Part shown: piece after piece, positions 2,841 through 49,249 of the stretch
Layout: each line of letters begins with the position of its first letter
How positions within the stretch are numbered: the stretch's first letter is position 1
Assembly (NCBI GenBank): GCA_903916325.1
Contig: CAIWWK010000156.1
Coordinates: forward strand, 1 to 54,255
Direction of reading: 5' to 3'
DNA length: 54,255 bases
Origin: Candidatus Firestoneibacteriota bacterium
Lineage (GTDB): Bacteria; Oederibacteriota; D2-FULL-39-29; CAIOVX01
Position numbers and translations under genes: made by a program
Notes under the pieces: model-generated
The model's input: only the letters and a program-made list of their open reading frames with translations
Database searches by the model: none
Told to the model about the DNA's origin: nothing

Positions 2841-3899
2841 TTGAGCATAAGGGAACTTGCCGCGCTTAACATTGCGGGAGTTACTCCCCTTATGTACCGG
2901 GAGCTTAAGGAGAAACTTGGCGATGACTCGCAGGTTCTTCGGGCAGCTCTCGCTCACAAGGGGAAGGAAGAGAAAGAAGCCCTTAACGCGGCCGACAAAG
3001 AGATAGTTTTTTCCGACAAATCACATGTGAAAATGCTCGCGATTGATGATCCCGGATACCCCGCGTCTTTACGATATATTCCGGATCCGCCGTATATAAT
3101 CTACGTAAAAGGCGGGCTCAAGCAGGAAGACCTAATCTCAATTGCCATTGTAGGAAGCAGGCGCCCTTCTGTTTACGGGAGAAGCCAGGCGGAAAAATTT
3201 TCCGCGGAGCTCTCGGCCCTTGGGTTTTGCATTGTCAGCGGGCTGGCAAAGGGAGTTGACGCGGCGGCGCATGGTGAGGTATTAAAGCGCGGAAACAGGA
3301 CTCTGGCGGTCCTTGGCAGCGGAATAATGAGGATTTATCCGGATGAGAACCGCGGGCTGGCCGAAAAGATCTGCGAGAACGGAGCGCTAATTTCAGAGTT
3401 TCCTCTGCTCAAGGGGCCGGAGAAGTGGAATTTCCCGCGCAGGAACAGGGTAATAAGCGGGCTTTCCCTCGGTTCTCTGGTAATCGAAGCAGGAGAAAAA
3501 AGCGGCGCGTTGATAACGGCAAAGTACGCGCTGGAACAGGGCCGGGAGGTATTTGCCATTCCCGGCAATATTACGAGCGTGATGAGTAAAGGCACTAACG
3601 GGCTGATAAAAGCCGGCGCGAAGCTGGCGGAGAGCGCTGAAGACATTGTCATAGAGCTTTCCGGTATCCTGCCTGACGGATTTCTTAACAAGACCGGTCA
3701 GGCTGACTTGCCGGTGGTCAGCCTCTCAGAAGATGAAAACAGGGTCTTCTCTGCCGTAGAAGGCGAGACGCACGTGGATGATATAGCGAAAACCTGCGGG
3801 ATGCAGGTGAGCAAGGTGCTTTCGGTGCTGGTAGGCTTGGAACTGAAGGGTTACTTGAAACAGTATCAGGGGAAGATCTTCGCAAAAGCTCTAAAATAG
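2841..3899 (+). CDS. dprA: DNA processing protein DprA/Smf
   Basis: Motifs IAIVGSRRPSVYG, SGLAKGVDAAAHG, FPRRNRVISGLS and GALITAKYALEQGREVFAIPG are DprA Rossmann-domain signatures. The start is placed at TTG 2841, 6 nt after AGGAG. The track start at 2820 is the alternative. Confidence 0.9.
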   Translation: MSIRELAALNIAGVTPLMYRELKEKLGDDSQVLRAALAHKGKEEKEALNAADKEIVFSDKSHVKMLAIDDPGYPASLRYIPDPPYIIYVKGGLKQEDLISIAIVGSRRPSVYGRSQAEKFSAELSALGFCIVSGLAKGVDAAAHGEVLKRGNRTLAVLGSGIMRIYPDENRGLAEKICENGALISEFPLLKGPEKWNFPRRNRVISGLSLGSLVIEAGEKSGALITAKYALEQGREVFAIPGNITSVMSKGTNGLIKAGAKLAESAEDIVIELSGILPDGFLNKTGQADLPVVSLSEDENRVFSAVEGETHVDDIAKTCGMQVSKVLSVLVGLELKGYLKQYQGKIFAKALK

Positions 3900-9908: not shown

Positions 9909-10679
9909 ATGAAGAAGATACCGGCGGTTGTTATAATGCTCGGGCTGATTGCCTGCGGCGCTTCTTCTGAAGTTACGAGGAAGCTCACGGTAAATCCGGA
10001 TAAGACCAGGCTTATTCTTTTTTCTGATGAATCCGGGAAGGAAGTCGCGCGCCGGCAACTGGATAAAGACGGCGTTTTGCTGAAAGAAGCCGGCAAAGTG
10101 CCTGAAGGCCCCGTTAAGCAATATTTTAAAGACGGAAAGGTTCAGGCAGAATGGAACTTCAAGAACGGGAAAGAAGAAGGTTTGTTCAGGGAATACTGGG
10201 ATGACGGCAAGCTTTGCTGGGAAGGAAAATATTCCGGCGGGAAACCGGAGGGCATAAAAAGGTTTTACTATAAAACAGGCAAGCTTGGTTACGAAGATGA
10301 GTACAGGGCAGGTATTCAGACCGGAAGAAAAAGCTTTTATGAAAGCGGCAAGGTAAACACGGAAGGTGTTTTCAAGGACGGCAAGGAGATTGAGCGGAAA
10401 TGGCTCCGGGAGAACGGAAAACTGCAGGGTGAATGCGCCATATTGAACGGAAAGGAAACCGGAATAAGGAAAGAGTATTATGAGAACGGGTGCAGGGAAG
10501 AAAGCAATTACCGTGACGGCAAAAAAGACGGCGCCATGAATGTCTTTTCCAAGTCAGGTAACCTGAACCTTGAAACAAATTTCAAGGACGGGAAAGAGAA
10601 CGGGGTCAGGAGCTACTATTCGGCAGACGGCAGCCTGCAGAAGCAGGAAGTGTATAAGGATGATAAACTAGTAAAATAG
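9909..10679 (+). CDS. MORN-variant repeat lipoprotein (YwqK-like repeats)
   Basis: The signal peptide has a lipobox (GLIAC). It is followed by about 8 repeats of the pattern G-x-K/E-x-G-x(4)-Y/F-x(3)-G-K. Confidence 0.65.
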   Translation: MKKIPAVVIMLGLIACGASSEVTRKLTVNPDKTRLILFSDESGKEVARRQLDKDGVLLKEAGKVPEGPVKQYFKDGKVQAEWNFKNGKEEGLFREYWDDGKLCWEGKYSGGKPEGIKRFYYKTGKLGYEDEYRAGIQTGRKSFYESGKVNTEGVFKDGKEIERKWLRENGKLQGECAILNGKETGIRKEYYENGCREESNYRDGKKDGAMNVFSKSGNLNLETNFKDGKENGVRSYYSADGSLQKQEVYKDDKLVK

Positions 10680-10689
10680 CAAAGAAAAC

Positions 10690-10738
10690 AAAGGGGACTG
10701 AACCTGTTTTCGCAGGAAATAGCGGGTTTGTCCCCTTT
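10690..10738 (+). terminator. Hairpin after the MORN gene (weak terminator candidate)
   Basis: AAAGGGGAC ... GTCCCCTTT form a 9-bp perfect stem enclosing an inner CCTG/CAGG hairpin. Only a short T tract follows. Confidence 0.35.
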
Positions 10739-10836
10739 AAACAATGAAATAATCCCGCCTTTTGTGGTAAAATAATAATTCATTATGCCTTAAGGCGCAA
10801 AGCCAGAGGGTAATATTCCTTTCTTGGGAGCAGTTT

Positions 10837-11769: not shown

Positions 11770-12964
11770 AGCGAAAAAAGTCGTCCTCGCTTATTCCGGA
11801 GGACTTGATACTTCCATCATAATACCGTGGCTTAAAGAAACTTACGGTTGTGAAGTGATAGCTTGCGCTGTTGATGTCGGCCAGGGCGAAGAGCTGGCGC
11901 CGCTCCGCAAGAAAGCCATTAAAACCGGGGCAAGCAAGATATACATTATTGACGCGAAGAAAGAATTCGTAGAAGACTTCATCTTCCCGGTGCTCAAAGC
12001 GGGCGCTGTATATGAAGGGCGGTATCTTCTCGGCACTTCCTTCGCGCGTCCGGTTATAGCTAAAAAGATTGTAGACATAGCGAGAAAAGAGAAAGCGGAC
12101 GCTGTTTGCCACGGCGCAACAGGCAAAGGCAACGACCAGGTGCGTTTTGAGCTTACTTTTAAAGCGTTAATGCCGGAGGTTAAAATTATAGCCCCCTGGC
12201 GCGAGTGGGACATAAAGTCCCGCGAGGACGCAATGGATTACGCCGCAGCGCGCGGGATTCCTGTGCCTGTGACCAAGAAAAAACCCTACAGCATGGACCG
12301 CAACCTCTGGCACATAAGCTATGAAGGGGGGATACTTGAAGACCCCTGGTTCACGCTGCCGGAAGATATGTACCTGCTGACTAAGAGCCCTGAAAAGGCT
12401 CCGAACAAGCCGGAGTTCGTTGAGATAGAATTCTTAAAAGGCGAGCCGGTAAAACTTAACGGAAAAAAATACGGACCTGTAGAATTAATACAGAAGCTCA
12501 ATGTTACAGCGGGCCGGCATGGCGTCGGGCGCATTGATATAGTTGAGAACCGTCTTGTCGGAATGAAGTCCCGCGGGGTGTATGAAACACCGGCGGGAAC
12601 AGTGCTCATGGCGGCGCACAAGGATCTTGAGCTGTTGACAATGGAGCGCGATGCGTATCATTACAAGGAAACGATAGCTCCGAAGTACGCCGAGCTTGTC
12701 TATAACGGACAGTGGTACACCGACATCCGGCAGGCGCTTGATGAGTTTGTAAACTTCACTCAACGCACCGTGACCGGAACCGTCAGAATGAAGCTTTACA
12801 AGGGTTCCTGCATGGCTGTAGGCAGAAAATCAGCGTACTCCCTGTACGACGGGAATATAGCGAATTTCAAGAAGGATTCGCACTACGACCACAAGGATGC
12901 CGAAGGTTTCATAAATCTCTTCGGGCTTCCTATCAAGATAAAGGCAATGTTAAGGAAGAAATAA
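11759..12964 (+). CDS. argG: Argininosuccinate synthase
   Basis: 401 aa. Contains AYSGGLDTS (ATP-PPase motif), [13 protein letters not shown] and [14 protein letters not shown]. Confidence 0.95.
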
Positions 12965-13217
12965 GCACCAGTAGTGCAAGCACCAAATCACAAGTCCGTC
13001 CGCGTGCGGACGAGATCGCGCCACAATATTGAATTGTGGCGGACACCAAGCACCAAATAAACACCAAGAAACAAATAATAGAAATGGAAAGTACAGGTAA
13101 TTCTAAAAGCAGTTTGTGGTTTGTGTCTTTTGTTTTTATTTGGGATTTGGTGCTTGAGCTTAAGTGATTTGGTTCTTGGGATTTGTGATTTAAGTTTTGC
13201 AGTTTCTTGTACAGGAG
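12965..13217. repeat. Imperfect-palindromic intercistronic element, copy 1
   Basis: About 95% identical over 96 nt (12980-13075) to 30604-30699. The C/A-rich left arm is mirrored by a G/T-rich right arm. Two perfect short hairpins lie in the left arm. Confidence 0.9.
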
Positions 13218-13225
13218 AAAAAAAT

Positions 13226-14506
13226 ATGAAACTTTGGGGCGGACGTTTTGAGAAAAAGCCGTCTAAGGCGGCCGAGAAGTTTACAAGCTCCATTTTCTTT
13301 GACTACCGGCTTGCCGAGTATGATGTGCTCGGCAGTATTGCTCATGTCAAAATGCTCGGGAAACAGAAAATAATATCGAAAACGGACTCCGCGAAAATTG
13401 TCAAGGCTCTCTGGAAGGTGCTCGCGTCGGTAAAGTCGGGGAAATTTGTGCCGTATACTTCCTGCGAAGATATCCACACGGATATCGAAAAACGCGTGTT
13501 AAAACTGGCAGGGGAAGCGGGTAAAAAGATGCACACTGCCCGCAGCCGCAACGACCAGATAGCGCTCGACGAGCGGATGTATATGCGCTCCGAGGTTAAC
13601 GATATAACGGCCGGCCTGGAAGAACTTATTTCCGTCTTCGCGAAACTCACGAAAGAGAATAGCGACCTGGTATTACCGGGTTTCACCCACATGCAGCACG
13701 CCCAGCCGGTGAAGTTCTCTGCCTGGGCAGGCGCCTACTCAGCCATGTTTTCGCGCGATATTGAGCGTTTCAAAGACTGTTTCAAACGCGTGAATGCAAT
13801 GCCTCTCGGGGCCTGCGCGCTGGCCGGGACCTCGCTACCGATTGATAGAAATTATGTCGCGAAGCAGCTCGGGTTTCCTGCTCCTGTCAAGAATACCATT
13901 GACGCCGTTTCAGACCGCGACCATGTAGTTGAATTTATCGCGGACTCCGCAATGGTTTTCATGCATTTAAGCCGTCTTGCCGAGGAAATGGTTATCTGGT
14001 CAACAAAAGAGTTCAAATATATCGAGATTCCGGACGAATATTCCACGGGCTCCAGCATAATGCCGCAGAAGAAAAACCCGGACATATTTGAACTGCTCCG
14101 GGGAAAGACCGGCCGGGTTTACGGCAACCTTACGGGGATACTTACCATTATGAAAGGCCTGCCGCTTGCCTATAACAGCGATATGCAGGAAGACAAGATA
14201 CATCTATTCAGCGCGGCGGACGCCGTCAAGGAAGCTCTTGAAATTTGTTCCCTGGTAATGTCAGGAATTAAGTTCAATAAAGAGAATATTAAATATGCCA
14301 TGAATAATGATTTTTCTGATGCCGTCGAGGCGGCGAATTACCTGGTAAAGAAAGGCCTTGGTTTTAAGGACGCGCATAATGTTGTCGGGAAAATTGTTCT
14401 GCATTGCATAAAAGAAGAGATTGGTTTCAAGGACCTTTCGCTTTCCGAGTTGAAGGGGTTCTCTGAAAAGATCGGACAGGATTTTTACGGCGTACTGAAT
14501 AAATAG
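13226..14506 (+). CDS. argH: Argininosuccinate lyase
   Basis: [13 protein letters not shown] is a typical ArgH N-terminus, and [11 protein letters not shown] is the fumarate-lyase signature. ATG 13226 follows AGGAG. The track ORF start at 13121 reads through the repeat element. Confidence 0.93.
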
Positions 14507-16097: not shown

Positions 16098-16214
16098 CTC
16101 CCCCTTCAACATAAGGGGGAGCCGGAGGGGGATAAAACAGGAATAGCTGGAATGTTTTTCCCGGGGGGATTTCAACCCCACCCCGGCCCTCCCCTTATCA
16201 TGAAGGGGAGGGGG
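16098..16214. repeat. G/C-rich hairpin repeats (CTCCCCCT..AGGGGGAG and CCCTCCCC-TTATCATGAA-GGGGAGGG)
   Basis: There are perfect 8-bp stems at 16098-16121 and 16187-16214. The second is related to the 12-bp-stem hairpin at 49201-49235. Confidence 0.8.
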
Positions 16215-16223
16215 AGAATAGGA

Positions 16224-17094: not shown

Positions 17095-17200
17095 AAAAGT
17101 TTGTAAAGTTCTTAAGGTTCATAAGGTTTATAAGGTCAAGGCTTCTGTTTTGCGGGACCTTATAAACTTTACAAACCTTATAAACCTTATAAACTTTTTT
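17095..17200. repeat. Palindrome built from TTATAAGGT-like 9-mers between atpG and atpD
   Basis: The left arm GTTTGTAAAGTTCTTAAGGTTCATAAGGTTTATAAGGTC is mirrored by GACCTTATAAACTTTACAAACCTTATAAACCTTATAAAC. Confidence 0.85.
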
Positions 17201-17202
17201 GA

Positions 17203-18901
<1,699 letters not shown>

Positions 18902-18902
<1 letters not shown>

Positions 18903-20006
18903 TGGCAGATCTGAAGTACGAATACGCGGCGCTGGAAAAGAGAGTCCTGGAGTTACGGGGGCATCTTTGACATTGACGGAAAGCTTGAAGAAGTAAAAAA
19001 AATTGACGTTGAGTCCTCGGGGGACAACTTTTGGGGGGATAACGAGAAAGCCAGGAAACTGCTTAAGAAAAGAGAGCAGTACCTCCGCGATATAGACGGC
19101 TGGAAGAAGCTCCACGCCGACCAAGAAGACCTGAAAGCCGGGCTGGAACTTCTTGCCCTTGAAAATGACGAGACCTTTCTGAAAGAGCTCGAAGCAAAAG
19201 CCGCGAAACTCCTCAAAGACATTGAAGCCAGAGAGCTTTACGTTTACTTCACCGATGAATACGACGGCAACAACGCTTTCCTGTCAATACATCCGGGAGC
19301 CGGCGGGACAGAGTCGCAGGACTGGGCTTCCATGCTGCTCCGCATGTACTCCAGGTGGATAGAGCGCAGGGGCTTTAAAGTTGAGACCATTGATCTTCTG
19401 CCGGGAGAAGAAGCAGGTGTAAAAGACGCGACACTGCTGGTTTCGGGCCCAAACGCTTACGGCTACCTTAAATCGGAAAAAGGCGTTCACCGCCTTGTCC
19501 GAATCTCACCGTTTGACGCCAACAAGAGAAGGCATACCTCTTTTGCTTCCGTGGATATCTCTCCTGAGGTAGACGACGTTCAGATCGAAGTGAAGGAAGA
19601 GGATTACCGGCTTGATACCTTTAGGGCCTCCGGAGCAGGCGGCCAGCACATAAACAGGACCGATTCCGCCGTGAGAATGACACACTACGCGACGAACATT
19701 GTAGTTACTTGCCAGAGCGAAAGATCCCAGCTCAAGAATAAAATAATTGCCATGAAAGTCCTTAAGTCAAGGCTTTATGAATATTACAAAGCGCAGCAGG
19801 ATGAGAAAATGAGCAAGGTTGGCGGCGAGAAAAAAGATATTGAGTGGGGAAGCCAGATAAGATCCTATGTTCTCCAGCCGTACCAGATGGTTAAGGATGT
19901 CCGTACCGGCTATGAAACAAGCAATACGCAGGGAATGATGGACGGCGAGATCGACGGTTTTATTGAGGCGTATCTAAAAATGAAGGCTGGGGCAAAGAAA
20001 AGTTAA
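18902..20006 (+). CDS. prfB: Peptide chain release factor 2, requires programmed +1 frameshift at CTT TGA C (18965-18971)
   Basis: Frame 0 runs from ATG 18902 to TGA 18968-18970 and is preceded by the SD-like GGGGG. The +1 frame from 18969 is open and joins track ORF 19332..20006 in the same frame. That ORF carries SPFD..KRRHTSFA and the SGAGGQHINRTDSAVR motif. Confidence 0.92.
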
Positions 20007-20135
20007 AAAGTTTGTAAGGTCCGTAAGGTTTATAAGCCGCACTTCGTGCGTCTTGTTTTGTAAGGAAAGATATTATGCATGCCAGACTCCGTCCGGCATA
20101 GCAGAATAAGGTTCATAAAGTTTGTAAGGTACACT
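20007..20135. repeat. GTTTGTAAGGT / TTATAAGG motif cluster with internal hairpins
   Basis: GTTTGTAAGGT occurs at 20010-20020 and 20120-20130. CGCAC-TTC-GTGCG and ATGCC..GGCAT hairpins lie between them. It belongs to the same motif family as 17095-17200 and 24004-24028. Confidence 0.7.
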
Positions 20136-20165
20136 ATGCGGGTGTAGCAGGAACGCGGAGGATTT

Positions 20166-20714
20166 ATGATGATAATCGGGACGCTAATGATTGAGCACCG
20201 ATTGATTGAGCGGATGGTAAAGATCCTGGACAGAGAACTTGATAAGGCCGGCAAAGACGGCTTGATCAATCCCGCGGATCTGGATTCTTTTGTTGATTTC
20301 ATGCGCGTGTACGCCGACAAATGCCATCACGGAAAAGAAGAGGGGATTCTCTTCGCGGAGCTTGACAGGAAGGATGTCTCGCGCGAGCACAGGAAAATAA
20401 CCGGAGAGCTAGTTTCGGATCATATTTTCGGCAGGAGCCTGGTAAATAAACTTGTTGCACTTAACGCGGAGTACAAATCCGGAGACAAAGGAAAACTCAA
20501 AGAGATTACCGGGGTCTTCTCCGGGCTCGCCGAATTTTATAGCGCGCATATACGCAAAGAAGACAAAAGCTATTTTATCCCCGTAATGAAGTATTTTAGT
20601 CCTCAGGAACACGAAGCAATGCTCAACGCTTTCAATGATTTTGATTCAAGAATGGACCTTGCAAAATACCAGGAAATGGTGGTTTCCATGGAAAAAACCC
20701 TGAAATCGTTGTAA
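20166..20714 (+). CDS. Hemerythrin-like (HHE cation-binding) domain protein
   Basis: 182 aa. It has paired His/Glu motifs (IEHRLIERM, CHHGKEEGILF, SDHIF, SAHIRKED). GGAGG RBS. Confidence 0.65.
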   Translation: MMIIGTLMIEHRLIERMVKILDRELDKAGKDGLINPADLDSFVDFMRVYADKCHHGKEEGILFAELDRKDVSREHRKITGELVSDHIFGRSLVNKLVALNAEYKSGDKGKLKEITGVFSGLAEFYSAHIRKEDKSYFIPVMKYFSPQEHEAMLNAFNDFDSRMDLAKYQEMVVSMEKTLKSL

Positions 20715-20777
20715 TACAACAGGTTGTGCCTTCCGAAAACCCTCACACAAGAAAAACCCCTGAGAACCAACTTTCCA

Positions 20778-20805
20778 TTGACAAAACCTTTAAAATAGCT
20801 ATACT
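20778..20805 (+). promoter_or_regulatory. Sigma70-like promoter upstream of smc
   Basis: TTGACA (20778-20783), 16-nt spacer, TATACT (20800-20805). Confidence 0.5.
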
Positions 20806-20916
20806 ATATGTTGTATAGGCTAGGCGATAGCCATACTACAGTAACTTTCTGTGTTTTACCGGCAGAACAAGACTGGGATTCAGGTAAAGTCGCATCTTTT
20901 GGGGGACCGGACAGGC

Positions 20917-23913
20917 TTGAAGCTAAAAAAACTTGAAATATACGGGTTCAAATCCTTTGCGGATAAGACCGTGATAAACTTTGAACCCGGGATTACCTGC
21001 ATTGTCGGCCCAAACGGCGCCGGCAAATCTAATGTCGTTGATTCCATCCGCTGGGTGCTCGGCGAGCAGAGCGCCAAATCCTTAAGATCAACCCAGATGG
21101 ATAATGTAATATTCAACGGCACCGATACCAGGCGCCAGCTTGGCATGGCAGAGGTCGGACTGACCTTCTCCGAGACCAAAGGACAGCTCTCCCTTGATTT
21201 CGAAGAAGCCACAATTATGCGCCAGATCTTCCGCGGCGCGGACTGTGAATACTTCATCAATAAATCACCCTGCCGCTTAAAAGACATCAACGAATTATTC
21301 CTCGATACCGGCGTCGGCACAGACACTTACTACATCATGGAGCAGGGGAAGATGGACGCGATCCTCTCCGCCAGGCCCATGGAGAGAAGAGCAATATTTG
21401 AAGAGGCCGCGGGCATCTCAAAGTATAAGCTCCGCAGGGATGAAGCCTTAAAGAAACTTGACGCGACAGAACAGAACCTGCTGCGCATCAAGGATATCAT
21501 CGGCGAAGTTAAGAGACAGGTAGGAAGCCTTGAGCGTTACGCGAAGAAAGCGGAAAAGAGCAAGAAGCTCAACGAAGAACTCCGCGAGGTTGAAGTTTCA
21601 CTGCGCCATTTTGAATACAGCTCTCTTATGGCTGAGCTTGAAAAGCTCATTTCAGGCGAGGCTGCCCTGAAAGCGGAAGTTGAAGCGCTGGAAAAAGGCA
21701 TAACGGACGAGGAAACTAGGCTTGTCGAAGGACGCAAGAAACTCTTTGAAGAAGAGAAGAGCCTCTCCGGAAAGCAGGACGAGTATTACCGGCTCGCCGC
21801 CGAGCTGAATAATGTCTTCAGTAAAATTAATATGCTCGGCGAAACAAAAGAGCGCATTGCCCGCGAAACCGAAGAGATAAATGCCAGGATAGCGGACCTG
21901 GACAGCAAGGCGGGTAACGCTAAGTCCCTGGCCGACAGGTCGACCGCCGAATACAACGAAACCGTTGCCTCCCTTGCCTCGGAAAAAGAAAAGATAGCTA
22001 AGCAGATGGACGCAATCCGGGAGGCGAAAGATAAGTACAAGCACGATGTTAAAAATCTGGAAGAGTTCAAGGTCCAGCTCTTTGACATTATGAACGAGGC
22101 GGTGCATTTAAGGAACGACCTGAAGAACTGTGAGAACCGCTCGGCGGAACTTTCCGCGGCTAAAGAGAAAAAACTCGCGCAGAAACAGGAGTACGTAAAT
22201 CAGCGCGAAGTTTTAGACGCCAAGCTGAGAGAGCTCAGAAAAACGCTCTCGGCTCTCGGCGACAGCGGCAAGTTCTCTTCTTCGGAAAAGATATATGAGT
22301 ATACCGCCGACGAAGTTGTGAAAGCAGGCGAAGCGGAAGTTTCCATGGAAGCTGACTTTCGGGCAGCGGCGAAAGCTGGCGATTTTGCGGCGCTTAAAGC
22401 GATAGTTTCAGGCCTCCGCGAAAAATGGAATTCCTATCTAAAGAAAGTTAAACCTCTTTTCCTTATTCTTCAGGATGTTGAAGGCACAGTCGCCAAAAAG
22501 CATGAAGAACAGACGCTTATTACGGATCTGGAGCGGGCGGGCAAATTTGAGAGGGTCATTGAGGCGGAAATAGCCCAGCTTGACGGAGAAATCGCAGGTC
22601 TTGCCGGGACCTCGGCAGCGGTAAAAGAAAAAATGACCTGGGTTGACGACAAGCATGCCGGGCATAACGCGAAGATAAAGGACCTGGAAAGTTCCATAGC
22701 GGACGCCAGAAAAAACGAAGAAGCGGATAGCATGGCCTTTACCGACCTTAAGGTGAGGCTTACATTCCTTGAGCAGAAAGAGATAAACCTGAAGAATGAT
22801 ATTGACCGGCTTGCGCTGAATCTCGAAGAGATTCAGGTCAGCAGAAAGATGTACCTTAAGGAGATAGAAGCCAAGAGCTCGTCCGTCGTGAAGAACGCGG
22901 AGGAGGCGCTGGAGCTTCAAAAGTTCCTTAACCAGAACAAGGAAAGGAAAGAACAGCTTGAAAACTCTGTCAACGAAGAAAGAAAGAGCAACGAAACCAT
23001 CAGGGAAGCCTTCTATCGGGACGAGGAAAGGCTCCGGTTGCTCCGCAAGGATCACGAAGTAAAACAGAAGAAGTCTTTTGAGAACCTGATAAGCATCAGC
23101 CGCATGCAGTCAAAGACGGGCGGCATCAGAGAGCAGGTCAAGAAGGATTACCGGTTGGAGCTTGAAGGTTTCACTCCGGAAAAGGATTACCTTGCGCTCA
23201 ATTCCCTCACAACTGAGACTGCGGCGGAAAAAATAGCGGAACTTAAAAGGTTAATAGACGAGATAGGCCCGGTCAATATGCTGGCTATGGATGAGTACGC
23301 TGAACTTACAGAGCGCTATAACACGCTCTCAACCCAGGAAAAGGACCTTTCCGAGGCAAAGAGCTCTCTCGTAAAGACCATTAACCAGCTTAACACAACT
23401 ACCAAGCAGCTTTTCCTTGAGACCTTCGTGAAGATCAAGAACAATTTCAACGAGGTTTTCAGGAAACTCTTTAACGGCGGGCATGCAGACCTGATACTCC
23501 TTGACGAGGAGAATCTTCTGGAGACCGGCATAGAAGTTATCGCAAGGCCGCCGGGGAAACGCCCGCAGAATGTCGCCATGCTTTCCGGCGGAGAACGCGC
23601 AATGACCGCCATCGGGCTGCTCTTCGCGGTATTTATGGTCAAGCCTTCGCCGTTCTGCATACTGGACGAAATAGACGCGCCGCTTGACGATTCAAATGTG
23701 ATAAGGTTCCGGGATATGCTTACCGGCTCTTTCCCGAACGTTCAGTTCATAATGATAACCCACAACAAGATAACCATGGAAACCGCCGACGTGCTCTACG
23801 GGGTCACCCAGACCGAACCCGGAGTTTCCAGGATAATCTCCGTCAAGCTGAAAGAGATTGACGAATCAGGCCTGGCAAAGGCGCCCGAAGCTACCAAAGA
23901 GAACGCCGGCTAA
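20917..23913 (+). CDS. smc: SMC-family chromosome segregation ATPase, short (998 aa), no recognisable hinge
   Basis: The heads are canonical: KLKKLEIYGFKSFADK, Walker A GPNGAGKSN, signature LSGGERAMTAIGLLFA, Walker B ILDEIDAPLDD. The start is placed at TTG 20917, 11 nt after GGGGGA. The track start is 20851. Confidence 0.85.
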   Translation: MKLKKLEIYGFKSFADKTVINFEPGITCIVGPNGAGKSNVVDSIRWVLGEQSAKSLRSTQMDNVIFNGTDTRRQLGMAEVGLTFSETKGQLSLDFEEATIMRQIFRGADCEYFINKSPCRLKDINELFLDTGVGTDTYYIMEQGKMDAILSARPMERRAIFEEAAGISKYKLRRDEALKKLDATEQNLLRIKDIIGEVKRQVGSLERYAKKAEKSKKLNEELREVEVSLRHFEYSSLMAELEKLISGEAALKAEVEALEKGITDEETRLVEGRKKLFEEEKSLSGKQDEYYRLAAELNNVFSKINMLGETKERIARETEEINARIADLDSKAGNAKSLADRSTAEYNETVASLASEKEKIAKQMDAIREAKDKYKHDVKNLEEFKVQLFDIMNEAVHLRNDLKNCENRSAELSAAKEKKLAQKQEYVNQREVLDAKLRELRKTLSALGDSGKFSSSEKIYEYTADEVVKAGEAEVSMEADFRAAAKAGDFAALKAIVSGLREKWNSYLKKVKPLFLILQDVEGTVAKKHEEQTLITDLERAGKFERVIEAEIAQLDGEIAGLAGTSAAVKEKMTWVDDKHAGHNAKIKDLESSIADARKNEEADSMAFTDLKVRLTFLEQKEINLKNDIDRLALNLEEIQVSRKMYLKEIEAKSSSVVKNAEEALELQKFLNQNKERKEQLENSVNEERKSNETIREAFYRDEERLRLLRKDHEVKQKKSFENLISISRMQSKTGGIREQVKKDYRLELEGFTPEKDYLALNSLTTETAAEKIAELKRLIDEIGPVNMLAMDEYAELTERYNTLSTQEKDLSEAKSSLVKTINQLNTTTKQLFLETFVKIKNNFNEVFRKLFNGGHADLILLDEENLLETGIEVIARPPGKRPQNVAMLSGGERAMTAIGLLFAVFMVKPSPFCILDEIDAPLDDSNVIRFRDMLTGSFPNVQFIMITHNKITMETADVLYGVTQTEPGVSRIISVKLKEIDESGLAKAPEATKENAG

Positions 23914-24003
23914 TCTGAGGGGCAAGTAGCAACGAATTATTTCGCATGCATCCTTCGTAAATCCCGTAACCACATACGCCTTCCCGGTCTCATTTGTTTT
24001 ACG

Positions 24004-24028
24004 TTATAAACCTTATGAACTTTATCCT
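24004..24028. repeat. AACCTTATAA-type motif fragment (complement orientation)
   Basis: TTATAAACCTTATGAACTTTATCC is related to the right arm of the 17095-17200 palindrome. Confidence 0.5.
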
Positions 24029-29304: not shown

Positions 29305-30603
29305 ATGACAGAAACCGATAAAGCTCTTACCGTTACTGAATTAACCAGAGGAATCAAAAATGTCCTCTCGGACGAATTTGACGATATTAGAGTTGAAGGC
29401 GAGCTCTCTAATTTTCTTATTCATTCGTCAGGCCACCTGTATGCTTCCTTGAAGGACGAGAATTCCGTAATCAAGCTCGTGATGTTCAAGGGCGCGAACC
29501 TGAAGCTCAAGTTCAAACCGGCGAGCGGAATGAATGTCATTGTTCACGGCCGAGTTGACGTCTATGAAAAGAGCGGCCAGTACCAGGTAATTGCCGATTA
29601 TATGGAAGAGGCAGAGGGCCGGGGCAGCCTGCAGAAGAAGTTTGAAGATCTCCGGGACAAACTTGTCAAGGAAGGGCTGATTGTCAGGAAAAGCGATGGT
29701 ACTCACCACAGGTTGAACCCGCGGCCAATTCCCGGCTTTCCGGAAAAAATAGGTATAGTGACCTCGCCAACCGGGGCTGCAATACAAGACATACTAAATA
29801 TAATAGACCGCAGGTTTTCAAATGTAACGGTAGTCCTGGATCCGGTAAAGGTTCAGGGCGACGGCGCGGCCGAAGATATTGCGGCAGCCGTGGCGCGGTT
29901 GAATTCTCTCGGCGGATTTGATGTCATCATAGTGGGAAGGGGCGGGGGTTCCATAGAGGACCTCTGGGCTTTCAATGAGGAAGTTGTAGCGAGAGCGATT
30001 TGCGCTTCGGAAGCGCCGGTTATTTCGGCGGTAGGGCATGAGATAGATTTCACCATCGCTGATTTTGTGGCGGACCTTCGGGCTCCGACGCCATCGGCCG
30101 CCGCGGAACTTGTGGTCAAGGACAAGAACGATATCGCGTCTGTGCTTGAGGGAAATTGGGCCAGGCTGAATCAGGCGCTTTCGGCGCTGACGCAAAGGCA
30201 CGGGGAAAGGCTTGCGTGGCTCGGAAAAACCGGGCTGGCATCGGCCCTCAGGCAAACAGTCGAGGTTTTCAAGGAAAGGATCAACAGTTTGCGGAAGAAC
30301 CGGGTGCTTTCAAAACCCTCGGAATTGATAGACGAACTCAGGCAGGAGCTTGACGACCTGGAGCAGAGGGGAGAAAAGGCCTACAGGCATTTTAGGGAAC
30401 TTAAGAGCCGCGAGCTGATACTTGCCAAAAGCATGCTTGAAGGGCTGAATCCGCTTAAGATACTGGAAAGGGGTTATAGCGTCACGCTGAGTAAGTCGAG
30501 CGGGGCAATAATTAGGGATTCCAAAGACCTGAAAAAGGGCGATAAGGTGGAGCTTAGATTCGCCAAGGGCTCCGCCGGCGCTGAAATAACAGAAACTAAA
30601 TAA
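29305..30603 (+). CDS. xseA: Exodeoxyribonuclease VII large subunit
   Basis: It has an OB-fold N-terminus (LTVTELTRGIKNVL...VEGELSNF) and the catalytic-region motifs GIVTSPTGAAIQD, RGGGSIEDLWAFN and SAVGHEIDFTI. The track start at 29278 is the alternative. Confidence 0.9.
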   Translation: MTETDKALTVTELTRGIKNVLSDEFDDIRVEGELSNFLIHSSGHLYASLKDENSVIKLVMFKGANLKLKFKPASGMNVIVHGRVDVYEKSGQYQVIADYMEEAEGRGSLQKKFEDLRDKLVKEGLIVRKSDGTHHRLNPRPIPGFPEKIGIVTSPTGAAIQDILNIIDRRFSNVTVVLDPVKVQGDGAAEDIAAAVARLNSLGGFDVIIVGRGGGSIEDLWAFNEEVVARAICASEAPVISAVGHEIDFTIADFVADLRAPTPSAAAELVVKDKNDIASVLEGNWARLNQALSALTQRHGERLAWLGKTGLASALRQTVEVFKERINSLRKNRVLSKPSELIDELRQELDDLEQRGEKAYRHFRELKSRELILAKSMLEGLNPLKILERGYSVTLSKSSGAIIRDSKDLKKGDKVELRFAKGSAGAEITETK

Positions 30604-30838
30604 GCACCAAATCACAAGTCCGTCCGCAAGCGGACGAGATCGCGCCACAATATTAAATTGTGGCGGACACCAAGCGCCAAATAAGCACCAAGAAACAAAA
30701 AATCAAAAGTCCAAATACGGGCAATTATAAAGGCAGTTTGTAGTTTGTGTTTTTGTGTCTTTATTTGGGATTTGGTGCTTGAGATTTGAGATTTGAACTT
30801 AAGTGATTTGAATTATTGTCATTTAGTCTTACAGGAGG
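30604..30838. repeat. Imperfect-palindromic intercistronic element, copy 2
   Basis: It has the same orientation and architecture as 12965-13217. It fills the xseA-xseB spacer from the TAA stop to the AGGAGG SD. Confidence 0.9.
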
Positions 30839-30842
30839 CTGT

Positions 30843-31082
30843 ATGCCGGAAGAAATTAAGTTTGAAGACGCTTTGAAGAAACTTGAAAAGATTGTGGAGA
30901 CGCTGGAGAGCGGAGATGTCGGCCTGGATGATTCTCTCAAGAAATATGAAGAAGGCGTCAGGCTGCTCCGTTTGTGCACAATCAAGCTGGAAGAGGCGGA
31001 GAAGAAGATTGAGGTGCTGACGAAAGACAAGAACGGCAAGGCAACGGGAACCAAGGAATTCAACAAACCGGAAGGAAAATAA
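30843..31082 (+). CDS. xseB: Exodeoxyribonuclease VII small subunit
   Basis: MPEEIKFEDALKKLEKIVETLESGDVGLDDSLKKYEEGVRL is typical of XseB. ATG 30843 follows AGGAGG. Confidence 0.9.
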   Translation: MPEEIKFEDALKKLEKIVETLESGDVGLDDSLKKYEEGVRLLRLCTIKLEEAEKKIEVLTKDKNGKATGTKEFNKPEGK

Positions 31083-37045: not shown

Positions 37046-37055
37046 AAGGAGCTAT

Positions 37056-38234
37056 ATGAAAAGAATATACTTAGACCACGCAGCCACTACCCCTGTGCAT
37101 CCGGAGGTTTTGGCGGCTATGACGCCTTACTTTACGGAGAAGTTCGGCAACCCTTCGACCATTTACTATTTTGGGCGCGAAGCGAAAGAAGGCATAGAAA
37201 TCGCAAGGGAGAAGTTCGCGAAAGCCATAAACGCCGATGTCTCGGAGATAGTTTTCACCAGCGGCGGAACGGAAGCGGATAATAACGCAATCATAGGGGC
37301 CGTCAGGGCTTCAGGCAGGAAAGCCGCGCATATAGTCACTTCAAAAATCGAACACCATGCCGTCCTTGAGACTTGCCATTTCCTTGAAAAGGAAGGGTGC
37401 AAAGTGACCTACCTGCCCGTTGACCGCGATGGGTTAGTTGACCCGGTGGAGGTCAAAAAGGCGCTGAATAAAGAAACGGTTATCGTCTCAATAATGTTCG
37501 CCAACAATGAAATCGGGAGCGTTCAGCCTGTCAGGGAAATCGGCGCTGTCTGCCGCGAGAACGGAGTGATTTTTCACACGGACGCGGTGCAAGCGCTCGG
37601 CAGCCTTCCGATAGATGTGGAAGCGCAAAACCTTGATTTGCTCTCTGTTTCCGCCCATAAACTCTACGGCCCGAAGGGTGTAGGAGCTCTTTATATCAGG
37701 AAAGGCGTGAAGTGCTCAAAACTGATGCACGGCGGCGAGCAGGAAAGAAGAAGAAGGGCGGGAACGGAAAATACAGCCGGGATAATAGGGTTCGGAAAGG
37801 CGGTGGAACTGGCGGTTGCCGCGCTGCCTGCGGAAAGCAAGCGGCTTTCGGCGCTCCGCGACGGAATGATAGCGAAGCTTATGAAGAAGATACCCGAAAT
37901 TAAATTGAACGGGCACGCGGTAAAGAGGCTGCCCGGAAACATTAACATCGCGGTCAAATACATAGAGGGTGAATCAATGCTTTTGAACCTGGATATGGAC
38001 GGCATCTGCGCCTCCACGGGCTCCGCCTGCACCTCGGGTTCCCTTGAACCGTCGCACGTGCTGTCCGCCATAGGCATTCCCCCCGAGCTGGCCCACGGTT
38101 CCATCAGGTTCTCGCTCGGAAAGTCCTCCACTAAAGAGGATATGGATTTCGTCGTTGAAAAATTCTCGGAAATCGTAGACAGGCTCAGGAAACTCTCCCC
38201 GCTTTACAAGGGGAACGGCTGCAAAATAAAATAA
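37056..38234 (+). CDS. nifS: Cysteine desulfurase (NifS/IscS family)
   Basis: 392 aa. Contains FTSGGTEADN, the PLP-lysine region SAHKLYGPKGVGALY, and the active-site loop STGSACTSG. Confidence 0.9.
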   Translation: MKRIYLDHAATTPVHPEVLAAMTPYFTEKFGNPSTIYYFGREAKEGIEIAREKFAKAINADVSEIVFTSGGTEADNNAIIGAVRASGRKAAHIVTSKIEHHAVLETCHFLEKEGCKVTYLPVDRDGLVDPVEVKKALNKETVIVSIMFANNEIGSVQPVREIGAVCRENGVIFHTDAVQALGSLPIDVEAQNLDLLSVSAHKLYGPKGVGALYIRKGVKCSKLMHGGEQERRRRAGTENTAGIIGFGKAVELAVAALPAESKRLSALRDGMIAKLMKKIPEIKLNGHAVKRLPGNINIAVKYIEGESMLLNLDMDGICASTGSACTSGSLEPSHVLSAIGIPPELAHGSIRFSLGKSSTKEDMDFVVEKFSEIVDRLRKLSPLYKGNGCKIK

Positions 38235-38250
38235 CTTTTGGAGGAAAACA

Positions 38251-38988
38251 ATGGAAGTAATAATAACAAATTCAGCGGATGAAATGTCAAAGAAAGGGGC
38301 TGAGCTTGTCGCGGCCGCGGTAAAAAAGAATCCTAAAGCCGTGCTCGGGCTGGCCACCGGCGGAACGCCGGTAAAGATGTACGCGGAACTCATAAAACTT
38401 TACAAAAGCGGCGCTCTGGACTTTAAAAAGGTAAGGTCATTCAACCTTGACGAGTATGTGGGGCTGCCGGGAACGCACGACCAGAGTTACAGGTGTTTTA
38501 TGAACGAAAACCTGTTTAACCATATAAACATTGACAAGAAGAACACCAATGTTCCCGACGGGCTCGCGAAGGACATAGAAAAATCCTGCGCGGAATACGA
38601 GGCGAAAATCAAGGCGTGGGGTGGCATAGACCTGCAGGTACTCGGCATAGGAAGCAACGGGCATATCGCGTTCAACGAGCCGCTTTCCGGCGCGATGTCT
38701 AAGACCAGAAAAGTGGCGATATCTCAGAGAACTATATCCGATAACGCGAGGTTTTTCAAGACAATGGATGAAGTTCCGAAAACCGCGGTAACTATGGGTA
38801 TCGGCACCATACTTGAGGCGAGAAAAATAGTATTGCTAGCCAGCGGCGGCAACAAAGCGGACGTCATAGCCGCGGCGGTGGAAGGCCCGGTGACCCAGCT
38901 GGTTCCGGCGAGTTTCCTTCAGCTTCACGCCGACACGGTTTTTGTCGTTGAAAAAGAGGCGGCTTCTAAACTAAAAGGGAAATATTAA
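38251..38988 (+). CDS. nagB: Glucosamine-6-phosphate deaminase
   Basis: 245 aa. Contains GLATGGTP, FNLDEYVGL and GIGSNGHIAFNEP. Confidence 0.9.
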   Translation: MEVIITNSADEMSKKGAELVAAAVKKNPKAVLGLATGGTPVKMYAELIKLYKSGALDFKKVRSFNLDEYVGLPGTHDQSYRCFMNENLFNHINIDKKNTNVPDGLAKDIEKSCAEYEAKIKAWGGIDLQVLGIGSNGHIAFNEPLSGAMSKTRKVAISQRTISDNARFFKTMDEVPKTAVTMGIGTILEARKIVLLASGGNKADVIAAAVEGPVTQLVPASFLQLHADTVFVVEKEAASKLKGKY

Positions 38989-39019
38989 TTACGCGGATGC
39001 GCAGTAAAGGCGGAGGACG

Positions 39020-39055
<36 letters not shown>

Positions 39056-39081
39056 TGGACCGATAGACCCCATGAGTACTT

Positions 39082-39113
39082 AATTAGCAATTAGCAATCA
39101 GTAATTAGTAATC
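39082..39113. repeat. Degenerate tandem heptamer AATTAGC/AATCAGT/AATTAGT x4.5
   Basis: AATTAGC AATTAGC AATCAGT AATTAGT AATC, read directly from the sequence. Confidence 0.85.
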
Positions 39114-39180
39114 CGCGGAGCGGCAGACCGATGCACAACAGCTTTAATAAATTTGCTTAATCTTATGGAGTGAATTGACA

Positions 39181-39495
39181 ATGTCAATTCGCCAAGGTGC
39201 ATCGGAGCGGAGCCGGCAGCGAGGCCAAATGCTAATCAATTGTCAGCGTGAAAGGTCCGAAATCGTCGCGTTCAGTACAGATATTGAAGAATACCGCATG
39301 GATTTACCAAAAGATATGCATATTACAAACCCAAATGGTATACATACTAATTCGGGTGGGAATTGGAATGCAGTATGGCAAGATTTCTTTAATTCATATG
39401 GCAATGGAACCCCATCTTCTAATGAAATCTTAGATAATATGAACAGTATGATTAATGATTTTGGTTTACAAGATTATGAATGGGGTGGAAAATGA
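39181..39495 (+). CDS. Small ORF, possible truncated polymorphic-toxin C-terminal tip (HNH/EndoVII-like tail)
   Basis: The C-terminal half reads DMHITNPNGIHTNSGGNWNAVWQDFF..TPSSNEILDNMNSMINDFGL. From memory, it resembles the tail of HNH-type toxin domains paired with Imm11. No upstream HH catalytic motif or delivery domain is present. Its ATGA overlap with the next gene suggests translational coupling. The real start is uncertain (ATG 39181 or ATG 39298). Confidence 0.35.
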   Translation: MSIRQGASERSRQRGQMLINCQRERSEIVAFSTDIEEYRMDLPKDMHITNPNGIHTNSGGNWNAVWQDFFNSYGNGTPSSNEILDNMNSMINDFGLQDYEWGGK

Positions 39496-40169
39496 GATTC
39501 TACATAATTACCTCTGACAGAGCTTTTCCACTGGCCGAATGGTCCGAGAAAATGAGCTACAGAACGACTATAAGGTGTGTGTCTAACCCGGGGCATCAAA
39601 GAGCCGGCGACAGACAAGACATATTAAGAATTAATGTGCTTTCCACAAAATACATCGATGTTATTTGGACATGGTATAGTGAATTATTATTCAGCGAGAA
39701 AATTGTGGAAATGTTTCGAAAGGAAAACATTACAGGCTACGTTGTATCTACAGTTGTTGTAGATAATGTCTTTAGTTCTGCTGAAAGACAGAATCTATTG
39801 CTAATCAACAAGAAGCCATGTGTGGTATCAGAAAAATACGATAATAATAATCAAAATATTATCGAAAAACTTTCAGAAATAAAGATTATTGGGAAGGGTG
39901 GTTTTGCTGATAAGCATACTGGAATACTTTTATTAGAGCAATGCAATGAATGTGGATATAAGAAATACACTCCCTTTAGAAATGGTATTTTTATTGATGA
40001 AAAGCAATGGGACGGTTCCGATATGTTTCGAGTAGAACCATTTGGATATGCAGTTGTTTCTGAGAGATTTAAGATGGTAGTAGAAAAGAACAAGATATTA
40101 AATATATGCTTCAGGGAAACAAAAGACATAATTCATCCATCAAGGCGAAACATTGGTAAGAATACTTGA
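39492..40169 (+). CDS. Imm11-like (DUF1629 / double-CXXCG family) immunity protein
   Basis: 225 aa. It has the N-terminus MRFYIITSD, a CNECG motif, and WDGSDMFRVEPFGYAVVSERFK near the C-terminus. This is recognised by recollection of the family, not by a search. The gene is AT-rich. Confidence 0.5.
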   Translation: MRFYIITSDRAFPLAEWSEKMSYRTTIRCVSNPGHQRAGDRQDILRINVLSTKYIDVIWTWYSELLFSEKIVEMFRKENITGYVVSTVVVDNVFSSAERQNLLLINKKPCVVSEKYDNNNQNIIEKLSEIKIIGKGGFADKHTGILLLEQCNECGYKKYTPFRNGIFIDEKQWDGSDMFRVEPFGYAVVSERFKMVVEKNKILNICFRETKDIIHPSRRNIGKNT

Positions 40170-40328
40170 AGGCTGAACAACCGCCTACAATGACTGTAAT
40201 GCCAGGAAAGAAGATAGTGTAACTTATTATACAATGACGTCTACGGTCGCAGTGTAATTGTAAAGCACTAAGAGGACAGCTGCCCCTGTTACTACTTATG
40301 ATATAAGTACTATTCACGGAAAAGAGTC

Positions 40329-40357
40329 TTGACAACCCTGGAATATTGACATATAAT
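40329..40357 (+). promoter_or_regulatory. Perfect consensus sigma70 promoter upstream of the AAA ATPase
   Basis: TTGACA (40329-40334), exactly 17 nt, TATAAT (40352-40357). Confidence 0.7.
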
Positions 40358-40390
40358 AATGGAAACGCTAACTCCAATAAGGCAGGTATA

Positions 40391-41539
40391 ATGGAACCAG
40401 CTATTCCAAGAATATTTAACCCTCCGCAAGGCGGATATTTCCTTTTCGGGCCAAGAGGTACAGGGAAAACCACATTGTTGAAACAAAGATACAGCGAGGC
40501 TCTTTGGGTTAACCTTCTGGAGCCGGATCTCTTCCGGCAGTTAAGCGCCAGGCCTGAAAGACTGAAGGAAATGGTAGAAGGGGCCGGAAAGAAAGTGGTT
40601 GTAGTAGATGAGATACAAAAGATCCCGGAGCTGATAGATGTTATTCACAAACTAATTGAAGACAACAAAGACGTTAAATTTATCCTTACAGGTTCAAGCG
40701 CGAGAAAGTTAAAATCGACGGGAGCCGGATTGCTGGGAGGCAGGCTTGCCAAACAGTCATTATACCCGTTTATGGCTTTTGAGCTGGGAGACAAATTCAA
40801 ACTTGAGCAGGTTCTTGAAACGGGGCTTGTGCCGGTTGTTTATTCATCCGCTGACAGGGCTGAATTTCTGAAAGCTTATGCCGCTATGTATGTGAAAGAA
40901 GAGGTTCAGGCTGAAGGTTTGGTGAGAAATATCGGCAGTTTTTCCAGGTTTCTTGAATCCGTAAGTTTCTCGCACGGTTCTGAATTGAATATCAGCAGTG
41001 TTGCCAGGGACTGCCAGGTTGAAAGAAAGACAGTTGAGGGATTTGTTAACATACTCGAAGATCTTTTGATAGCATATCGTATACCGGTTTTTCGGAAGAA
41101 GGCAAAACGGCAGGTTGTGTCGCACCCAAAGTTTTATTTGTTTGACACGGGGCTGTTTCGGGTATTGAGACCTTCCGGCCCGTTGGATGATACCGGAAGC
41201 ATCGAAGGCTGCGCCCTTGAAGGATTGGTTGCCCAGCATCTTATCGCATGGTGTTCTTACGGCGGCGCGCGGAGCAGTGTTTATTACCATGAAACAAAAT
41301 CAGGCAGTGAAGTGGATTTTGTTGTTTACGGTCAGAATTCATTCTTTGCAATTGAAGTAAAGAACAGCCGGAAGGTCCGACAGGAAGATCTGGTGCCTTT
41401 AAGAAACTTTATAGAAGACTATCCCGAGAGTAAAGGCATATTTTTATACAGAGGCAAAGAAAAACTAAAAATATCAAATATCTACTGTGTTCCGGTTGAT
41501 GAATTCCTTAGAACTCTTGAGCCAGGCAAGAACCCATAA
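40391..41539 (+). CDS. AAA+ ATPase of the AAA_14/DUF4143 type
   Basis: It has the Walker A motif GPRGTGKTTL and the Walker B motif VVVVDEIQK, with a C-terminal region typical of DUF4143 proteins. ATG 40391 follows AAGGCAGG. The track start at 40346 lies inside the promoter. Confidence 0.75.
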   Translation: MEPAIPRIFNPPQGGYFLFGPRGTGKTTLLKQRYSEALWVNLLEPDLFRQLSARPERLKEMVEGAGKKVVVVDEIQKIPELIDVIHKLIEDNKDVKFILTGSSARKLKSTGAGLLGGRLAKQSLYPFMAFELGDKFKLEQVLETGLVPVVYSSADRAEFLKAYAAMYVKEEVQAEGLVRNIGSFSRFLESVSFSHGSELNISSVARDCQVERKTVEGFVNILEDLLIAYRIPVFRKKAKRQVVSHPKFYLFDTGLFRVLRPSGPLDDTGSIEGCALEGLVAQHLIAWCSYGGARSSVYYHETKSGSEVDFVVYGQNSFFAIEVKNSRKVRQEDLVPLRNFIEDYPESKGIFLYRGKEKLKISNIYCVPVDEFLRTLEPGKNP

Positions 41540-49200: not shown

Positions 49201-49235
49201 TTGCCCCCTCCCCTTATGATGAATGGGAGGGGGCA
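49201..49235. repeat. Perfect 12-bp-stem hairpin TTGCCCCCTCCC-CTTATGATGAAT-GGGAGGGGGCAA
   Basis: The reverse complement of the left arm equals the right arm exactly. It shares a core with 16187-16214. Confidence 0.85.
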
Positions 49236-49249
49236 ATTAGGTAAAACAA

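Follow-up and report, generated by a model that had tools for sequence, protein, structure and literature searches.

The argG and argH genes in the 54,255-nt stretch of DNA analysed here (the window) are separated by a spacer of 261 nt (12965-13225) that lies between the argG stop codon at 12962-12964 and the argH ATG at 13226 and is occupied by a strongly structured element. Does this element control the arginine genes, does it act on mRNA or DNA in some more general way, or is it a repeat that spreads through spacers of this kind? A preliminary description, made from the letters of the window, offered three candidate roles: an mRNA processing or stability module, a mobile intergenic repeat, and a protein or nucleoid binding site.

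The element in the argG-argH and xseA-xseB spacers

The identities of ArgG and ArgH on either side of the element were confirmed by Pfam. The spacer had been described as one structured unit in which a C/A-rich left arm is complementary to a G/T-rich right arm and two hairpins stand in the left arm only. Our analysis agreed on each count: the sequences quoted were all in place, the arms are complementary, and the orthologous element of the relative L070 lacks exactly the 56-nt module that holds the two hairpins. The parts of the element, its second copy in the window, the copies found elsewhere and the spacers at orthologous junctions are listed in Table 1.

Table 1. Parts of the element in the window, copies in other genomes and spacers at orthologous junctions
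Feature or locus	Position or spacer length	Strand	Remarks
Resident small hairpin GCAC-CAGTA-GTGC	12965..12977	+	directly 3' of argG stop codon
Copy 1 core, family-profile match	12978..13191	+	nhmmer 12977-13189, E = 3e-65; fold z = -4.26
5' terminal repeat AAGCACCAAATCACAAG	12978..12994	+	complementary to 13140-13156 and also to 13161-13179
56-nt two-hairpin module	12995..13050	+	CAAG at either side; missing en bloc from orthologous L070 element
Hairpin 1, CGTCCG-CGTG-CGGACG	12997-13012	+	perfect; left arm only
Hairpin 2, CGCCACAAT-ATTGA-ATTGTGGCG	13019-13041	+	perfect; left arm only
Inner C/A-rich left arm	13044..13075	+	units of about 7-8 nt (CACCAAG, CACCAAAT, AAACACCAAG); part of inverted repeat
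Apical region, A-rich	13076..13112	+	differs among family members in the alignment
G/T-rich right arm	13113..13191	+	units ATTTGGG, ATTTGGTG, CTTGAG, CTTAAGTGATTTGG...
Spacer 3' tail	13192..13225	+	argH Shine-Dalgarno AGGAGA 13214-13219; ATG 13226
Copy 2	30602..30811	+	nhmmer 30601-30811, E = 1.7e-66; fold z = -5.20; xseA-xseB spacer
Copy 2, parts	module 30619-30674; hairpin 1 30621-30636; hairpin 2 30643-30665	+	module BLAST match
argG-argH, window	261 nt		full element
argG-argH, L070	178 nt		same element without 56-nt module (one block) and without 22 nt of right arm
argG-argH, L068/L069	113 nt		left arm and apex; right arm missing
argG-argH, L067	91 nt		unrelated spacer
argG-argH, L076 (71% ArgH)	0 nt		overlapping stop/start codons
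argG-argH, L075 (63% ArgH)	288 nt		element absent; AT-rich spacer with a terminator-like hairpin
xseA-xseB, window	230 nt		copy 2
xseA-xseB, L071 (84% XseA)	65 nt		no element
xseA-xseB, P0122 contig (87% XseA)	13 nt		spacer length alone
xseA-xseB, P0124 contig (78% XseA)	218 nt		spacer length alone
L009 copy			between GAPDH-like (gap) and pgk-like gene
L006 copy			upstream of GDP-mannose-dehydratase-like (gmd-like) gene
L007/L045 copy and orthologous L008			between two minus-strand oxidoreductase-like genes
L059/L050			further metagenome-contig copies

The small hairpin that follows the argG stop codon is part of the resident spacer and lies outside the repeat, since it is kept in L068 and L070 and has a counterpart, GCACTG...GTTGTGC, in the element-free spacer of L067. 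The element itself begins with the 5' terminal repeat, whose inverted repeat is 94% complementary and which forms helix 1 of the consensus structure with two compensatory pairs. In the hairpin module the stems were invariant and the loops variable among the six copies aligned. A period of 18 was reported by TRF at 13043-13078 in the inner left arm, and in the right arm the block missing from L070 lies at about 13159-13180.

That the element generates spurious open reading frames had also been proposed, and these were present in the ORF list: 13121-14506, which uses a TTG start, and two minus-strand frames at 12988-13293 and 30761-31066. Relatives of ArgH are mostly 418-460 aa long and the seven closest have 426 aa, which matches a start at ATG 13226. 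A false N-terminal extension of ArgH was present in one public gene call (L003, 450 aa), so that the element accounts for wrongly called ORFs and for false N-terminal extensions among public gene calls. At 18957-18972 of the window, prfB carries the canonical +1 programmed frameshift site of RF2 (GGGGG CAT CTT TGA C), which explains the mere 224-aa release factor fragment that gene callers report.

A second copy in the same orientation, noted earlier as lying inside another operon, was located in the 230-nt spacer (30604-30833) between xseA and xseB, both of whose products were confirmed by Pfam. Copies 1 and 2 are 88% identical over a gap-free repeat of 153 nt and 87% identical over 193 nt; the final ~50 nt are divergent. 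Their hairpin stems are identical and the loops differ. Relative to L071, homology ends at 30603 and restarts at 30821. No matches to the element motif are expected in shuffles, and motif and nhmmer profile searches of the 54-kb window found these two copies only. The profile search found no copies in the compact ribosomal-protein cluster upstream of the window.

Copies elsewhere and variation at orthologous junctions

Had these been the only two copies, a local duplication would have been indicated. Three other MAGs of Candidatus Firestonebacteria carry further copies, as do metagenome contigs. A pattern scan of the genome collection with hairpin 2 returned four loci in the three MAGs. With hairpin 1, a scan of metagenomes returned 57 loci, among which the element was present in L045 (a duplicate of the L007 locus), L050 and L059 only; the remaining pattern matches were rejected as chance matches in unrelated GC-rich DNA. 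The module-bearing subfamily is rare, with one or two exact pattern matches per MAG. All copies lie in spacers between co-directional genes and usually start 0-15 nt after the upstream stop codon. Of the seven independent copies, six run in the same direction as the genes beside them, and the seventh, in L007, is antisense to the ORFs on either side. Compared with its orthologue L007, L008 has lost a portion of the right arm.

Because copies occur at unrelated junctions in other genomes, the element is neither a local duplication nor specific to arginine genes. The position between argG and argH and the strong predicted structure would suit a gene-specific cis-regulator of the arginine operon, such as an attenuator, a riboswitch or a leader. 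Against this, and equally against a plain duplication in two copies, stands the occurrence of the same element at xseA-xseB and, in other genomes, at gap-pgk and further unrelated junctions. Relatives have argG-argH junctions without the element, and a promoter and terminator scan found no promoter or plus-strand terminator signal within it. The preliminary description had recognised no known RNA family, and Rfam gave the same answer, with no match at gathering thresholds in the whole window and only noise (at most 18 bits, E at least 1.7) when the element was searched in E-value mode. We regard an arginine-specific regulator, or a simple local duplication, as highly improbable.

Relatives beyond strain level were found through their ArgH and XseA homologues (Table 1). 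In strain-level relatives, whose ArgG protein is identical to that of the window, the element is identical too, and identities of the flanking genes give the tree (L067,(window,(L068,L070))). Given the presence, absence and truncation of the element across orthologous junctions, the cell tolerates its absence, its truncation and the loss of its module at these junctions. In search of target-site duplications, filled and empty sites were compared at argG-argH, xseA-xseB and hydrolase-argD; none could be demonstrated, as the empty sites had diverged too far for the ends of the element to be located. Direct CAAG repeats flank the nested 56-nt module only: the L070 junction reads ...CGCAAG/CACCAAAT, compared with ...CACAAG/TCCG...CACCAAG/CACCAAAT in the window. 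On the flanking-gene tree, a duplication of 3-4 bp on insertion of the module and its microhomology-mediated deletion would be equally parsimonious. The arginine clusters of the relatives differ from that of the window in gene content as well. A 256-aa ORF without a Pfam match (9909-10679) lies between argD and argF in the window lineage and is missing from the clusters of L067, L068 and L070; the 157-nt spacer that follows it (10680-10836) is strongly structured (z = -4.8).

Alignment of all copies showed a conserved core composed of the 5' terminal repeat, the hairpin module and AAGCACCAAATAARCACCAA, followed on the right by TTTATTTGKGATTTGGTGCTTG. Copies differ in how many 7-8-nt units make up the arms, in the apex, of which there are at least three types, and in their outer extensions, with extra outer arms of the AAATTCGAAG type in L006 and L007. 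The apex of L068 is closer to copy 2 than to copy 1, its positional orthologue, a likeness that suggests exchange between copies. In L067, L068 and L070, a family profile built from the six full copies also detected a sister subfamily, which occupies the hydrolase-argD spacer and whose termini have co-varied (AAGCACTAAAT ... ATTTAGTGCTT); remnants occur in the smc-purE spacer. The corresponding hydrolase-argD site of the window has a 24-nt spacer and no element. In relatives of the L067/L068/L070 type, a member of the broad family occurs roughly every 5-10 kb across the region that was sampled.

The atpG-atpD spacer holds a hairpin-less relative of the element in L002, L067 and L070, and a different palindrome, built of TAAGGTTNA units, in the window and L068. 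The hairpin-less relative is 100% identical among its three carriers; this was set aside as uninformative, because the identity continues for more than 2.5 kb around it, through recombination or chimeric assembly. The 100% tract covers the atp region of L002, L067 and L070, and a comparable tract of 4.2 kb, 99% identical, links window positions 37046-41216 with L071 positions 17147-21317 amid neighbouring DNA of only 78-80% identity. Such tracts, between lineages that are otherwise 78-88% identical, stem either from recent inter-lineage recombination or from chimeras made in metagenome assembly.

Taken together, the junctions show copies that have been gained, lost, truncated and rearranged in spacers after the stop codons of co-directional genes. 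Dispersed copies, presence, absence and decay at orthologous sites and the one antisense copy favour the mobile intergenic repeat among the three roles first proposed. Against it speak the low number of module-bearing copies retrieved, the co-orientation of six of the seven independent copies and the high conservation of copy 1 in L070 described below. We conclude that the element probably represents a family of short palindromic repeats, modular and non-coding, that is specific to the Candidatus Firestonebacteria lineage and similar in kind to MITE, BOX, BIME and ERIC. Each unit ends in AAGCAC(C/T)AAAT ... ATTT(G/A)GTGCTT and is built of arms with variable numbers of C/A-rich 7-8-nt units and their G/T-rich complements, a variable apex and, in one subfamily, the 56-nt module. 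The family was previously undescribed, although the kind of bacterial repeat is well known; its uncommon features, arms made of complementary short-unit arrays and a nested two-hairpin module, are variations on a known theme. Its spread would need a transposase acting in trans or recombination between copies, so that the element may be mobilised in trans now, may have been so earlier, or may have spread by copy-copy recombination. No transposase was found in the window or in the retrieved loci, and the element was unmatched in phage and plasmid collections searched by BLAST and in viral contigs searched by pattern scan.

These results document an undescribed repeat family in an uncultivated phylum. 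In metagenomes of Firestonebacteria the element can be used to type strains and to reveal chimeric assemblies, and the full, module-less, arm-less and empty junctions provide a natural series for testing the effect of long intercistronic hairpins in polycistronic mRNA.

Folding, covariation and conservation

Copy 1 was predicted to fold at -80.7 kcal/mol and copy 2 at -77.9 kcal/mol (z-scores against dinucleotide shuffles are in Table 1), and none of 200 shuffles folded as well as either spacer. The full copies all fold at -74 to -100 kcal/mol. Since the spacers lie inside operons, the element would be co-transcribed with its neighbours and would form an imperfect hairpin of about 50-60 bp with two side hairpins. 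Its likely effect is a generic one, in which the hairpin would act as an RNase III-type cleavage site, as a barrier to 3' exonucleases or as both, and would uncouple the fates of the flanking cistrons. Such an effect on mRNA would not amount to arginine-specific control.

Has this structure been selected as RNA? The element could be a domesticated intercistronic device, in which the long hairpin and a module resembling a four-way junction are selected for mRNA processing or stability and set the ratio of cistrons whose products are needed unequally (for example atpG:atpD and xseA:xseB). In the consensus structure 95% of cells are paired and three of 45 pairs are compensatory, which, with the invariant hairpin stems and variable loops, is consistent with such a device. 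The covariation is weak, as 20 of 500 shuffles also reach three compensatory pairs, and in hairpin 2 of L059 one pair is altered on both sides to give a G-A mismatch. Moreover, covariation of the termini is equally expected for inverted repeats recognised by one transposase. The location of all copies between co-directional genes, mostly within 0-15 nt of a stop codon and in six of seven cases co-oriented, would also suit a device that acts in the transcript; the antisense copy in L007 argues against it.

The predicted MFE was lower for the transcribed strand at every locus, antisense L007 included, as would be expected of a structure that works as RNA. We dropped this asymmetry as evidence of RNA-level selection. 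When the left arm was aligned with the reverse-complemented right arm in a strand-symmetric way, 19 G.T and 15 A.C mismatches were counted, so that the arm mismatches have no RNA-strand bias; the gain in MFE comes from surplus GU-rich units in the tail, which self-pair on the plus strand only.

Conservation can be read in more than one way. Over the shared element, copy 1 and its L070 orthologue are identical at 130 of 134 positions (97%), while third codon positions of the flanking argG and argH are only 70.7% identical between the same two genomes. Neutral junk would be expected to be less conserved than this, which suggests that selection, gene conversion or recombination over a short patch has been at work. 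High identity between the window and L070 is also seen in the final 50 nt of argG (96%), and identity tracts are common nearby, so that conservation of the element, which would otherwise speak for an RNA device, can be accounted for by conversion or recombination over a short stretch. Close relatives that lack the element, its module or the entire right arm at the same junctions also weigh against selection of this kind. The mRNA processing or stability module of the preliminary description thus keeps a possible RNA-level function, set against weak covariation, the absence of RNA-strand bias and the relatives without the element or its right arm. We judge the domesticated device unlikely; a new category of biology would be at hand only if that reading were true.

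A wider form of the same thought, which takes its selection from sequence conservation well above that of synonymous sites, is that these repeats are exchangeable, selected intercistronic RNA cassettes of the whole lineage. Hairpins with CA/GU arms, hairpins of the TAAGGTT type and the nested module would then be swapped between strains at junctions such as atpG-atpD, xseA-xseB and gap-pgk to tune subunit ratios, and the module would be either a mini-element with site-specific insertion of its own or a docking site for a protein or RNase. We consider this quite unlikely.

The element might also act as DNA, as a REP/BIME-like site for binding of gyrase or IHF or as a cruciform that organises the nucleoid, with the 7-8-nt units as protein-binding iterons. 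Arms that are arrays of short periodic units, the strand symmetry of their mismatches and the tolerance of an antisense copy are what such a site would predict, and hairpin 1 is a near-perfect 16-bp DNA palindrome with a restriction-site-like centre in some copies (GCATGC and GAATTC). The copies are dispensable at orthologous sites, however, nothing links the units to a known motif and no candidate binding protein is known. A DNA-level site is therefore very unlikely, and we return to the mobile repeat as the preferred reading.

Comparison with known repeat families

The features that define MITEs and BOX elements, and the effects of RNase III and RNase E on Correia and ERIC repeats, have been described (PMC3049150, PMC10969869). 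Like MITEs, which are small (below about 400 bp) and non-coding, the Firestonebacteria units measure 150-310 nt and contain only spurious ORFs that run into flanking genes. They have terminal inverted repeats, in which AAGCACCAAATCAC(AAG) pairs with (CTTAA)GTGATTTGGTKCTT or GATTTGGTGCTT; these are 94% complementary, are kept in six copies and have co-varied in the sister subfamily. The structure is highly base-paired (z = -4.3 and -5.2), copies are dispersed, and insertion is polymorphic between relatives. Viewed instead as a structured cis-regulatory RNA, the element is missing or cut down in orthologous spacers, has compensatory changes at three of 45 pairs and, in copy 1, is 97% identical to L070.

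Among the classical bacterial MITEs, the Correia repeats of Neisseria and the ERIC/IRU repeats of Enterobacteria resemble the element in being imperfect palindromes of 100-300 nt with terminal inverted repeats, which are intergenic, often lie inside transcription units and show insertion polymorphism between strains. They differ from it in their arms, which are of unique sequence rather than tandem short units, and in having an internal promoter or IHF site, neither of which was detected in the element, for which no IS partner is known. The target-site duplication of Correia is TA, whereas the empty sites of the element are too diverged to place its ends. Transcribed Correia hairpins are cut by RNase III and ERIC repeats expose RNase E sites (PMC10969869), and this processing provides the model for the effect that we propose in Firestonebacteria. 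A role as RNase III substrate or 3'-exonuclease barrier is established for Correia, ERIC and REP and has been proposed for BOX (PMC10969869, PMC3049150).

The BOX repeat of Streptococcus pneumoniae (boxA-boxB(n)-boxC) is likewise a composite, modular, small interspersed repeat, with complementary terminal modules, a varying number of internal units and extensive predicted secondary structure (PMC3049150). It is often co-transcribed with its neighbours, as we infer here, and creates spurious ORFs on both strands (PMC3049150). In Firestonebacteria, by contrast, the arms are low-complexity arrays of C/A and G/T units, an extra two-hairpin module is present in one arm and far fewer copies were retrieved. 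Given the different phylum, membership in BOX is implausible and kinship of sequence would not be expected; the likeness lies in modular architecture alone.

REP and BIME repeats are clustered imperfect palindromes of 20-40 nt with a conserved GTAG-like 5' tetranucleotide and an associated RAYT gene; strictly taken, the element is not one of them. Its side hairpins, perfect palindromes of 16 nt and 23 nt whose loops vary, are of REP size and form part of a mosaic in operon spacers. The two are unrelated to each other, however, lack a shared adjacent tetranucleotide of the GTAG type, and occur once per element rather than in inverted clusters. REPs are said, from the work of Newbury et al. in 1987, to stabilise mRNA 3' ends. 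We also considered an IS200/IS605-like or PATE-like nature of the hairpin module and rejected it as unsupported, the two hairpins having unrelated sequences.

The STRR repeats of heterocystous cyanobacteria and the MIRU repeats of mycobacteria consist of tandem units of 7-9 nt, largely in one orientation relative to transcription. As in the element, short tandem units fill intercistronic spacers; the arrays of the element differ in forming two complementary arms that pair as a hairpin, and it lacks the small overlapping ORFs of the MIRU type.

Other repeats were observed in the window and its relatives. A second palindromic family, with 9-nt units of TAAGGTTNA and its complement, occupies 17095-17198 and is also found at 20000-20130 and 24001-24025; in the atpG-atpD spacer of the window these units build a stem of 43 bp with T6 behind it, an arrangement that resembles a terminator or attenuator. 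A G/C-rich hairpin repeat, CCCTCCCCTTATCATGAAGGGGAGGGGG, occurs twice, at 16101-16222 (guaA-atpG spacer) and 49206-49241, with 86% identity, and may represent a further small family. In L076 (71% ArgH identity), a G/T-rich tandem array with a period of 14 nt (GTGTGTTTGAATCT-like) fills the argH-guaA spacer at 3170-3270; it recalls the right arm of the element but has no complementary arm. Finally, an intergenic spacer at 39016-39112 of the window contains heptamer tandem arrays, GACAGAA (5.7 units) and AATTAGC (4.4 units), that recall the STRR of cyanobacteria.
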